Shown here: one piece after another, positions 1 to 3,000 of the stretch
How positions within the stretch are numbered: position 1 is the stretch's first letter
How the letters are laid out: the number at the start of each line of letters is the position of its first letter
Virus record (IMG/VR): IMGVR_UViG_2839594473_000007
Direction: 5' to 3' (one strand)
Source of the DNA: a virus
Taxonomy: Duplodnaviria > Heunggongvirae > Uroviricota > Caudoviricetes
Length of the DNA stretch: 48,110 nt
Program-made: the position numbers

Positions 1-3000
1 ACCCGCAAACCACACATCCCTTTAAAACGCGTAACATACATTGCCTGCGTTTAACTTTCTTTGAACTCTTGCAGAAAAATGAGAATTCGTGAGTACGATC
101 ACTCAAAATCGCCTGGCAAAAATAAAATCACCCTATAAATGCACAAAAAACGGGCAAAACTACCTGGTTCGCAAAACTGCGTCTAAAGTTAAACCGGGAC
201 CTCGCGAGCAAGGGTGAGACGATGGCGCTTTACACAATTGGTGAAGTGGCGTTGCTTTGTGATATTAACCCTGTCACGTTACGCGCGTGACGCAACATTT
301 TTAAAAATCGACGAAGATCGTCCAGGAGCGCCGTTTTTCAAGGGTTGGATAGATGATTCGTTTACCATGTCGATGAACTTCGACGAATTTCGCCGATAAA
401 AAGTGTCCCATACATGCCCCATTGATGCCCCATAAACAATATCAGGAATTGACACTGGTTATCCATACAGATAAAAATAACACCTGTACATAACTACAGT
501 TACAGGAGGGTGTTATGCGTGTTGAGATCTGTATCGCTAAAGAAAAAATCACTAAAATGCCAAACGGTGCTGTGGATGCGTTAAAGGAAGAATTAACCCG
601 ACGCATCAGTAAACGTTATGACGATGTAGAGGTGATCGTAAAAGCCACCAGCAACGATGGCCTTTCTGTTACGCGCACCGCCGATAAAGATTCAGCTAAA
701 ACTTTTGTTCAGGAGACGCTGAAAGATACCTGGGAGTCTGCTGACGAGTGGTTTGTTCGCTAATAAACACGTAAATCGGTAACGGCTGGAAATCATTCAA
801 TACTCGCACTATCGAAAGTTCACCAGCCAACCGCGACACGCTCTTACATACGAAGTGCCGCGCTTTCCTTAATAATTTTTTAGCAGTACTGTGTAAATAA
901 TGAGCGACCTAATCCATGCATGACGCGTAGTGCCTATTGTGCATCTTTCTGCGTCTCTTTTTACTGGACCCAAGCCAATGATGCTGGCGATACCATTCCC
1001 GCCAGGCCCACTTACAACAGTAAAATTCGGAGCTCTGCCTTTACATACAATACAATCTACCTAACAAATATCCCCCGGACATTGCAACACAAAAACCGGA
1101 GCCGGACTCCGGTTTTGTGAAGCTGTCGGGTTACTTCATCCCGCCAATATTTTCCCACGTCCCGTCAGCACGCAGGATTTGCAGCGGTCTTACCACGCAC
1201 TGTATCTGCTTTTTATCCGCATCCAGTATCACCACCTGCGTGATTACCCTGTCCTGCTCCGGAATAATACCATTCTCATCGGACTCCAGGATGTCTGCCG
1301 GCCCCAGTCGCAGTTGTGCTGTAAGCGACTGCCCGTGTTCACGGCCATCATGCTTTCCGCAACCACACAGACGCTGCATAAGTTTTTTTAGTATATTCAT
1401 GTCATTCTCCTGTTCTGCCTGTATCACTGCCCACTTCATCCAGCCCCTTAACATCCTGCCACGGCCCGTCACCAAACCTGACCTGCAAATGCCGAAACAG
1501 CCCCTGAACCTGTGTGGCATCTTTGGGGTCAAGAAAGGTCAGTCCGGTGATGAGTGCGCCATCTGTATCCGGGAACCAGCCATTGCTGTTTGTCTCAATA
1601 ATGCTCGCCGGCCCCAGACGAAAACGGATTTGTGTCTCCCCCGGGTCGCCCTTCGGTCCCTGAGGTCCGGTTGCCCCCACCGGGCCAGCCGCACCTGTTT
1701 CTCCTTTCGGTCCCTGTGGGCCTGCCGGGCCTGCCGCACCGGTATCTCCCTTTGGACCCTGTGGACCTGCATTTCCCGTCAGACCGGTCTCTCCCCGCTC
1801 TCCCCTGTCACCTTTCGGCCCCTGCGGGCCTGCCGGACCAGCATCACCTGCCGGTCCCCGTTCGCCGGTTGCCCCGACAGGGCCGGTGTCACCGCGCTCT
1901 CCCTTATCACCCTTCGGCCCCTGAGGACCCGCGGGCCCCTGTTCCCCCTTTGGCCCGGGAGGTCCCACCACGGTGGGGATTCGGTTTACGGCCTCTTCCG
2001 CCGCTATCCTGCTTTGTTCCGCTGACTGTGCGCTTTCTGCTGACTCCCGGGCTTTTTCTGTTGCGGTCGTTGCATCCCTGGCTGCATTACCGGCTGCACT
2101 TTCTGCCGTCTTTCTTGACAATTCAGCTTCTGCTGCACTTTGTGATGACTCACTGGCTTTTTGAGCGGCCGCAGAAGCCGAGGACGAGGACGCATCCTCT
2201 GACTGCTTTGCAGCGGCTGCACTTTCTGCCGCCTGCCGGGCTGACTCCAATGCATCCCCTGCTGAAGTGTCAGCATTTGCCGCGCTCTCTTCTGCCTGAC
2301 TGGCTGATATGCCGGCATTCCTCGCGGACGTCTCCGCCTCTCCGGCATTCTTCTTCGCCTCCTCAGCGTGACGCGCCGCTTCTTCCACCATCAGTTCAAA
2401 ACGACGCAGTGCCTCCGGCCGGACGTCATCCTCCGACATGGCACCGAGAAAATCATTCAGCGTCCCCGGTTGAGAATCTTCATACACGGTGATGGTCCCG
2501 GCATGTGACGGCGGGAACCCTTCCACCAACAGAATAACGCTGTACTGACCGTACTCAACGTCCATGCTGTAACGACCGGCTTCATCCGGATTTTCAGAGG
2601 CCACCGTGTTCACCACCACCGTGGCGCTGTTACGTCTGGCTTTCAGTTGAATGGTGCAGTTCTCTACCGGTTTTCCTGTGCCGTCTTTCAGTACACCTGA
2701 AATCTTTACTGCCATATTCACCCCACAAAAAAGCCCGCCTGAACCGGCGGGCTGTCATAACACTGTGTTACCTGGCTAATCAGAATTTATAGCCGACACC
2801 CACGATGAAGCCGTCAGTGCGCCAGTCGCCACTGCCGGAGCCTTCATAAGCAATATCAATGGCCACGGATTCGGTCGGGTTAAACTGCACGCCAGCTCCC
2901 CACGCCAGAGACGTGTTGCTGTGGCGACCGTCATCACTTCCGGTCAGCACATCGTGCGTTTTCCCCTTGTTGTCAGTTACGCGGAGATAATCCCCGGAGA

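Follow-up and report, generated by a model that had tools for sequence, protein, structure and literature searches.

The 3' end of a tail fibre gene in a Shiga toxin (Stx) phage raises the question of why a phage should encode the tip of its fibre twice. In the IMG/VR virus record IMGVR_UViG_2839594473_000007, a stretch of 48,110 nucleotides (nt) of caudovirus DNA that is referred to here as the window, the side tail fibre gene ECs2941 is followed after a single nucleotide by the small open reading frame ECs2940 (ORF2), which carries a diverged second copy of the fibre's C-terminal domain. Positions 1050-2800 of the window are 100% identical to prophage Sp15 of Escherichia coli O157:H7 Sakai and to phage VT1-Sakai, and the region is the final transcription unit of the late operon of the Stx1 prophage Sp15. 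The observation is not in itself new: the fibre has been characterised, the small gene annotated and the pairing discussed in print. Mondal et al. (2016, Sci Rep 6:39036) remarked on such a pair in Sp5, a short-tailed Stx2 phage (ORF67/ORF68, that is ECs1228 and the next gene), sought a frameshift signal and found none, and proposed that the second gene is an 'intragenomic reservoir sequence'. Full-text literature searches returned no paper assigning a function to ORF2, and the available part of the paper that characterised the fibre (Ghosh et al. 2012, PLoS One 7:e37872) does not discuss the small downstream gene, the word 'downstream' having 0 occurrences there. The present analysis adds that ORF2 is selectively maintained, older than the split between two fibre lineages, more conserved than the neighbouring tip and detectably translated. 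Selection, age, conservation and translation together argue against the published reservoir and for a role at the protein level. That ORF2 is a genuine, expressed and selected accessory gene of the fibre module can be held with high confidence; that it docks specifically on the fibre tip is a tentative proposal, to which somewhat less than even weight is given.

The fibre gene lies on the minus strand at 1402-2715 (ATG at 2715, TGA stop at 1402-1404), encodes 437 amino acids and is annotated in Sakai as ECs_2941, 'phage tail fiber protein'. The original prediction had described its product as a lambda-Stf N-terminus, a collagen tract and a short C-terminal domain, and this layout is borne out by matches to three Pfam families (PF08400, PF01391 and PF06820). 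The PfN domain (2317-2715), a lambda-Stf-type N-terminus for tail attachment, matches PF08400 over profile positions 1-133 of 134 (E=8.7e-69). Between it and the collagen tract is an Ala/Glu/Ser-rich low-complexity region (1966-2316), the 'PCoil', proposed to be a trimeric coiled coil; this assignment is taken from Ghosh et al. (2012), and the stretch has the expected length (about 116 residues). The collagen-like tract (1633-1965) consists of 37 unbroken Gly-X-Y triplets, or 111 residues by regular-expression count (PF01391, E=3.9e-18), and shows periodic repeats of 45 nt and 99 nt at the DNA level. The distal knob and trimerisation module, the PfC domain (1438-1629, residues 365-428), covers the full PF06820 profile (1-64, E=6.5e-36). 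Behind it stands an acidic C-terminal tail, EVGSDTGRTGE (1405-1437), which in the alignment is present in fibre-type PfC domains and not in those of the ORF2 type; the last 12 residues of the fibre (DEVGSDTGRTGE) have a net charge of -3.

With a full-length PF08400 match, a single unbroken collagen domain and a C-terminal PF06820, ECs2941 is a fibre of the EPclA type, and it is named as the EPclA of prophage Sp15, with a collagen domain of 111 residues, in Table 2 of Ghosh et al. (2012, PLoS One 7:e37872). In the same paper the near-identical ECs2717 product is reported to form trimers shaped like a dumbbell, about 55-60 nm in size, whose collagen triple helix is genuine and melts at 42 °C, and PfC and PCoil are identified by experiment as trimerisation modules. 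The same work reports trimers of rEPclA, of Col-PfC and of PfC by itself, each formed in E. coli in the absence of ORF2, and fast refolding of Col-PfC after heat, again without ORF2. The collagen tract had been predicted to be prone to changes in length; the Gly-X-Y runs of intact fibres in related copies indeed range from 45 to 111 residues, and lengths of 63-144 are given by Ghosh et al. (2012).

ORF2 (1131-1400, minus strand) is an annotated coding sequence of 89 codons plus stop and is the homologue of Sp5 ORF68 and of gp59 of phage phi24B. The junction reads AGGAG-AA-TGA-C-ATG, in which a single C separates the TGA of the fibre from the ATG of ORF2 and the Shine-Dalgarno sequence AGGAG (1407-1411) falls within the final fibre codons and precedes the ATG at 1400 by 6 nt. 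A separate 89-residue reading frame one nucleotide after the stop, with its own ribosome-binding site, is thus present as originally described. The first 27 residues (1320-1400) lie outside the PfC domain and are basic, with a net charge of +3, a predicted helix at residues 3-11 and then the pattern CGCGKH..H. The remainder (1134-1319, residues 28-89) is a PfC domain paralogous to that at 1438-1629 (PF06820, E=5.3e-36). The claimed paralogy of the two C-terminal domains holds on formal alignment, since BLASTP identifies 25 of 62 residues as identical (40%, E=4e-13), and these two are the only PfC copies that tblastn finds in the window. PHROG 576 matches ORF2 from end to end (1-89 of 89, E=2.3e-60), and PGAP names it 'phage tail fiber C-terminal domain-containing protein'. 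PF06820 is the sole Pfam match of ORF2 at E<=0.1; the same scan gives no match to the Tfa family (PF02413, Caudo_TAP), and no Tfa-type protein follows the fibre. The pair was accordingly right to be set apart from the usual stf-tfa arrangement.

The survey of related copies covered 80 loci from viral contigs and a few others, with 84 full-length copies of ORF2. The junction GGAGAATGACATGAA is identical in 80 of the 84 and differs by a single base in 2 more, the last two exceptions being an IS66 insertion and a 1-nt deletion; the gap is always 1 nt, and the Shine-Dalgarno sequence is kept in 82. The 89-codon frame is likewise intact in 82. Identical DNA (100%) is also present in many complete O157:H7 genomes. 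A sequencing error that splits one gene in two, which the original prediction had named as a way in which it could fail, is excluded by the near-invariant junction in the 84 copies and by these complete genomes. The ratio of nonsynonymous to synonymous polymorphism (pN/pS) is 0.28 for ORF2 over the 82 intact copies, which comprise 62 distinct DNA sequences; counting only variants seen at least 3 times, it is 0.22 for the PfC part of ORF2, and it is 0.33-0.37 for the fibre's own PfC domain. ORF2 is less often broken than the fibre gene, a difference that is not significant once length is considered.

The same arrangement also occurs elsewhere. Among 5,426 complete E. coli genomes, 4,804 give at least a partial match and 693 contain the whole unit. 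ORF2 is found in 296 phage records, in 295 of them nearly at full length, which include long-tailed Stx1 and lambda-like phages as well as the short-tailed Sepvirinae; in PA2, one of the Sepvirinae, a 645-residue fibre is followed by a 1-nt gap and then by the 89-residue gene. A decayed remnant in Citrobacter rodentium has a truncated PfN-PfC gene and then an ORF2 homologue. One surveyed locus (L070, about 3463-3500) has an IS66-family transposase gene ending 37 nt upstream of an intact ORF2; since the transposase gene replaces the 3' end of the fibre gene, the fibre has been lost there and ORF2 retained. A scan of genome contigs yielded only two short ones; one of them, a 725-bp contig (L083) labelled Xanthomonas pisi DSM 18956, has an ORF2 that is 94% identical and most likely represents contamination by E. 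coli or phage DNA.

A divergent lineage, represented by locus L088, gives the pair some depth in time. Its fibre has a different C-terminal region, with no collagen immediately upstream, and likewise has a PfC domain at its end (PF06820, E=5e-16). It is followed by a 79-residue ORF2 orthologue, P0128 (PF06820, E=1e-23), which has its own AGGAGG, a 14-nt overlap with the fibre gene rather than a 1-nt gap, and again a terminator hairpin on its 3' side. ORF2 and P0128 are 60% identical, with a ratio of nonsynonymous to synonymous substitution rates (dN/dS) of 0.26 at a dS of about 1.1, whereas identity is 39% between the fibre PfC domains of the two lineages and 30-42% between each ORF2 and the PfC domain of its own neighbouring fibre. 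In the alignment the fibre-type domains are marked by the C-terminal tail and QV[RK]FGDGxWQD, and the ORF2-type domains by ILDAxKxQIxCV and an N-terminal M-x-I-[LF]-KK…L-x-G-C-x-K. Because fibre-type and ORF2-type domains form two distinct groups, the duplication predates the split of the lineages. Both copies have been retained, with the small protein as the more conserved partner.

The PfC family as a whole is tiny. A profile search found 88 matches among 1.84 billion cluster representatives, mostly Escherichia fragments, and ORF2-type sequences were found in E. coli, E. albertii and C. rodentium. The 120 best ORF2-type matches in 5.8 billion protein clusters are all of 131 residues or fewer and include no full-length fibre, so that a PfC domain of this type practically never ends a full-length fibre. 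A different use of related units is seen in P0150 (L089 3505-5202, Logan SRR17035117), a 565-residue metagenomic fibre-like protein with four tandem repeats of about 80 residues, each of which resembles the ORF2-type PfC domain in its second half (up to 50% identity over 34 residues). The collagen tract of P0150 follows these repeats, which is the reverse of the EPclA domain order. Because P0150 has four tandem PfC-like half-domains, PfC-like units can stack along a fibre.

ORF2 is made during lytic growth. Two ORF2-specific peptides, VITQVVILDADKK and ADGTWENIGGMK, both exact substrings of ORF2, are present in the purified-virion proteome supplement of a 2026 phi24B cryo-electron microscopy preprint. 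The supplement attributes both peptides either to the reading frame that succeeds the fibre ('gp59_start') or to fusion entries, hypothetical ones that the authors had added. In the phi24B gel data, the 'fusion' entry exceeds the fibre, gp61, in only one band, number 23 of 24, by 25 to 24. Judged from the peaks of larger proteins, band 23 is at the low-mass end, which fits a free protein of 10 kDa.

ORF2 is thus an old partner of PfC-tipped fibres that moves with them as a two-gene module in long- and short-tailed Stx phages. The reading favoured here is that it is an accessory protein of the fibre tip. ORF2 is translationally coupled to the fibre gene and translated separately, and its product, a short basic N-terminus joined to a diverged copy of the fibre's PfC knob, would form a small homotrimeric knob as the fibre's own PfC does. 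This knob may then dock on or beside the distal knob of the fibre, possibly through contact between the basic N-terminus of ORF2 (+3) and the acidic C-terminal tail of the fibre (-3), and it could tune adsorption or host range on natural hosts as a dispensable accessory. The points that count for this role are the domain layout and paralogy, the intact junction and ribosome-binding site, the selection, the corresponding pair in L088, the age of the duplication, the spread of the module, the peptides, the charge pattern, the stacking precedent of P0150 and the trimerisation of PfC. Several observations weigh on the other side. The argument from complementary charges is weak. Folding and trimerisation of recombinant EPclA proceed in the absence of ORF2 (Ghosh et al. 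2012), and ORF68 is among the non-essential late genes of Sp5 on K-12 (Mondal et al. 2016, Sci Rep 6:39036). In the count column of the phi24B supplement, as read, each ORF2 peptide is credited with 3 spectra and the fibre peptide GLDEVGSDTGR with 47, so that ORF2 is minor or loosely associated; with so few peptides it could be a carried-over contaminant, and the phi24B authors' text does not include gp59 among the structural proteins. The broader proposition that ORF2 is a new kind of fibre-tip partner, whether as a second, exchangeable receptor-binding head that caps the knob or as a released receptor decoy, is given slightly less weight than docking itself.

The AlphaFold2 monomer model of ORF2 is an all-beta domain with a predicted local distance difference test score (pLDDT) of about 80, preceded by a helix at residues 3-11 and then low confidence within the N-terminal 27 residues; that of the fibre PfC domain is likewise all-beta (mean pLDDT 80.6) with a low-confidence tail. 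A Mu tail fibre was the top match, although a weak one, in both structure searches with the ORF2 model, and the structure search with the fibre PfC model gave no Mu tail fibre match. A sequence search of the PDB for structural relatives returned nothing meaningful. Models of a single chain are unreliable for a domain that is trimeric and probably intertwined, and the modelled resemblance to the Mu tail fibre may be regarded as an unconfirmed lead, with no convincing relative among solved structures.

The N-terminus of ORF2 has features of its own. Residues 11-16 (window 1353-1370) form the motif L-x-G-C-x-K after an amphipathic K-K helix, and the same motif occupies residues 11-16 of P0128; the copy in the window has extra Cys and His (CGCGKHDGREH). 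Metal binding or interchain disulfides are possible functions of this motif. Its lipobox-like part, L11-C-G-C14, recurs as L-F-G-C in P0128. A receptor-blocking lipoprotein of the Llp or Cor kind was considered and rejected on inspection, residues 1-10 (MNILKKLMQR) being charged and amphipathic, without a hydrophobic core.

The alternative that survives best, although it is unlikely, is that ORF2 is an assembly helper that acts transiently during infection, helping the C-terminal end of the fibre to come into register or to trimerise and the collagen helix to nucleate, and then leaves, an analogue and not a homologue of Tfa or gp38. ORF2 sits where tfa would, directly 3' of the fibre gene and coupled to it in translation; its conservation exceeds that of the accompanying tip (60% versus 39%), and in virions it is sub-stoichiometric, to judge from the phi24B supplement. 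Because the collagen domain melts at 42 °C (Ghosh et al. 2012), help with assembly at 37 °C is conceivable. Against such a role stand the unaided trimerisation of rEPclA, Col-PfC and PfC and the fast refolding of Col-PfC described above, the non-essential nature of the Sp5 homologue and the lack of any similarity of ORF2 to the Tfa family in Pfam. In vitro the fibre needs no ORF2 to trimerise, and ORF68 of Sp5 is classed as non-essential for making infectious phage on K-12; an assembly factor, which was among the functions first suggested, is therefore disfavoured as an obligatory one.

A soluble decoy or blocker is a little less probable again. In such a scheme free trimeric ORF2 knobs, released at lysis or acting within the cell, would bind a surface ligand or receptor; a purpose for this, to be given no greater weight, might for example be to spare phage from useless adsorption to debris or nearby lysogens. 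ORF2 consists of a knob domain with neither a PfN attachment domain nor a shaft, is expressed late and is not needed for plaque formation in the laboratory. Because its PfC domain differs from that of the fibre at 60% of residues, it could have a ligand of its own. To our knowledge, however, no ligand is known for any PfC domain. ORF2 also has no signal peptide, there being no hydrophobic core before L-x-G-C, and its strict adjacency and coupling to the fibre are explained no better by a decoy than by a partner role. A decoy, as in the original prediction, may still apply, as may an accessory or assembly-aiding function that is not essential.

The proposal made for the identical arrangement in Sp5 (Mondal et al. 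2016), in which ORF2 is spare coding material that can replace the fibre tip, is improbable on the present evidence. The sole likeness of the two PfC copies at the DNA level is a stretch of 27 nt (1284-1310 paired with 1594-1620, minus strand) with 74% identity at a spacing of 310 nt, blastn detecting no DNA similarity between the copies apart from it. An exact 11-nt core of this stretch, at the start of both PfC domains, comprises the L-G-P-A codons; because this microhomology is codon-aligned, a 310-nt deletion would fuse the PfC domain of ORF2 in frame to the collagen shaft. Two chimeras in the databases would fit such an event: P0063 (L087 4-291), in which collagen is joined to an ORF2-type PfC domain, and P0138, which combines the N-terminal half of ORF2 with the C-terminal half of the fibre PfC. 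P0063, however, begins at base 4 of a 3.3-kb draft contig and is for that reason discounted as evidence of swapping; it may be an artefact of assembly, as may P0138. The microhomology is absent in L088, the swap would be a one-way deletion, and no full-length fibre is among the 120 best ORF2-type matches. A silent store, moreover, needs no ribosome-binding site, start codon or N-terminal 27 residues, and all of these are conserved in a gene that is translated. A synthetic 64-nt query for the tip-swap junction, searched against the complete E. coli genomes, merged parental pieces 374 nt apart into one place, so that swaps were indistinguishable. No invertase or reverse transcriptase is found beside the pair, where the neighbours are lom, J and dinI, and positions 1-4000 contain no flanking inverted repeats. 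The notion of a cassette for switching the tip is disfavoured by the lack of an invertase and of such repeats, by the near absence of DNA homology and by the practical absence of ORF2-type PfC domains from full-length fibres.

A relic without function, left by an old tip exchange and simply carried along with the fibre module, is still less probable. The non-essential Sp5 homologue is compatible with this, as are the partial ORF2 3' fragments in 15 related loci, which mark the prophage end as a recombination hot spot, and the intactness of 82 of 84 copies, which given the frequent breakage of fibre genes is not significantly above what is expected for so short a gene. The selection data (pN/pS of 0.22-0.28 within the survey, dN/dS of 0.26 over a dS of about 1.1) nevertheless largely refute it. 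The ribosome-binding site, start codon and terminator have been kept in two lineages with different junctions, and peptides of ORF2 are detected in the phi24B supplement. The idea of a decaying remnant of tip shuffling is accordingly disfavoured for a gene that is old, translated and under purifying selection.

A programmed +1 frameshift or read-through that yields a fibre with two tandem PfC knobs is the most improbable reading of all: in both lineages the frame of ORF2 is indeed +1 to that of the fibre, the UGA-C stop with an SD-like AGGAG just upstream is loosely like that of prfB, and the mass spectrometry database for phi24B contained the hypothetical entries 'Fusion_6159_FS1/FS2', labelled 'Spike or just gp59?', but a +1 slip would leave the P-site codon GAA unable to re-pair (AAU), no stimulatory RNA structure was found (z=+0.85), Mondal et al. 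(2016) found no signal, the junction sequence of L088 is completely different, and in the part of the phi24B supplement examined there is no junction peptide and the lead of the 'fusion' entry over gp61 in the low-mass band 23 fits the free protein.

Along the minus strand J comes first, then lom and a terminator-like hairpin, and after these the fibre gene, ORF2 and a strong hairpin with a U run. This last hairpin, which resembles an intrinsic terminator (1086-1119, minus strand; RNA folding energy -28.3 kcal/mol, z=-5.2), closes the fibre-ORF2 unit. GC-rich terminator-like hairpins with T runs also lie between lom and the fibre gene (2732-2753, minus strand) and between J and lom (3409-3428, minus strand), and given these upstream hairpins the expression of fibre and ORF2 presumably relies on antiterminated late transcription. 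The lom gene is at 2780-3379 on the minus strand (PF06316, E=2e-124). The host specificity gene J is split into two overlapping minus-strand reading frames, 5744-6970 (408 residues) and 3447-5867 (806 residues), which are in different frames and are likewise annotated in Sakai as two 'phage host specificity protein' coding sequences, ECs_2943 and ECs_2944; the split J of Sp15 looks like a frameshift. Beyond the fibre module, at the prophage end, is a DinI-family gene on the plus strand (ECs_2939, 515-763; PF06183, E=1.2e-19).

About 15 related loci carry ORF2 sequence twice: 0.7-1 kb downstream of the complete gene, a stretch from its 3' part recurs (L016 4475-4596; L013, L014, L018, L021, L024, L025, L027, L030, L034, L036, L062, L065 and L069). 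These copies correspond either to nt 130-251 of ORF2 at 92% identity or to nt 167-269 at 82.5%, and they sit past inserted cargo, which consists of a LuxR-like gene and then NleG-type effector genes. The presence of partial copies past the cargo suggests that cargo genes are swapped through recombination at the 3' end of ORF2.

The fibre-ORF2 module is present in hundreds of Stx-converting and related prophages, often in several copies per genome of enterohaemorrhagic E. coli, and if ORF2 helps to set adsorption or host range, it bears on the spread of Shiga toxin phages between strains. A role as cap or decoy, if true, would give the collagen-like fibres of Stx phages a two-part tip, relevant on natural hosts that bear O-antigen and invisible in assays on K-12.

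The fibre itself shows no difference from the EPclA described by Ghosh et al. (2012), being ECs2941 with the order PfN-PCoil-Col-PfC. The closest arrangement is that of Sp5, where ORF67/ORF68 similarly comprise a collagen-like, PfC-tipped fibre and then an 89-residue PfC-only reading frame, with a 1-nt gap in the related PA2; Sp5 differs in having an EPclB fibre (645 residues, with two collagen tracts and a Pf2 repeat) on a podovirus tail, whereas the fibre here is of the EPclA type on a lambda-like siphovirus tail. The Mu G segment with Gin, the P1 C segment with Cin and e14 with Pin also keep alternative coding material for the fibre C-terminus beside the fibre gene. Unlike those cassettes, ORF2 has the same orientation as the fibre gene and its own start codon and ribosome-binding site, with no invertase or flanking inverted repeats. 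In lambda Stf-Tfa, T4 gp37-gp38 and Mu S-U, as here, a small co-expressed gene lies directly 3' of the fibre gene, and lambda Stf shares its PfN domain with the present fibre. In some systems of this type the small protein remains on the fibre tip or is the adhesin. The role favoured for ORF2 follows a logic similar to that of such fibre-tip adhesins and chaperones, but with a partner that is built from a paralogue of the tip itself.

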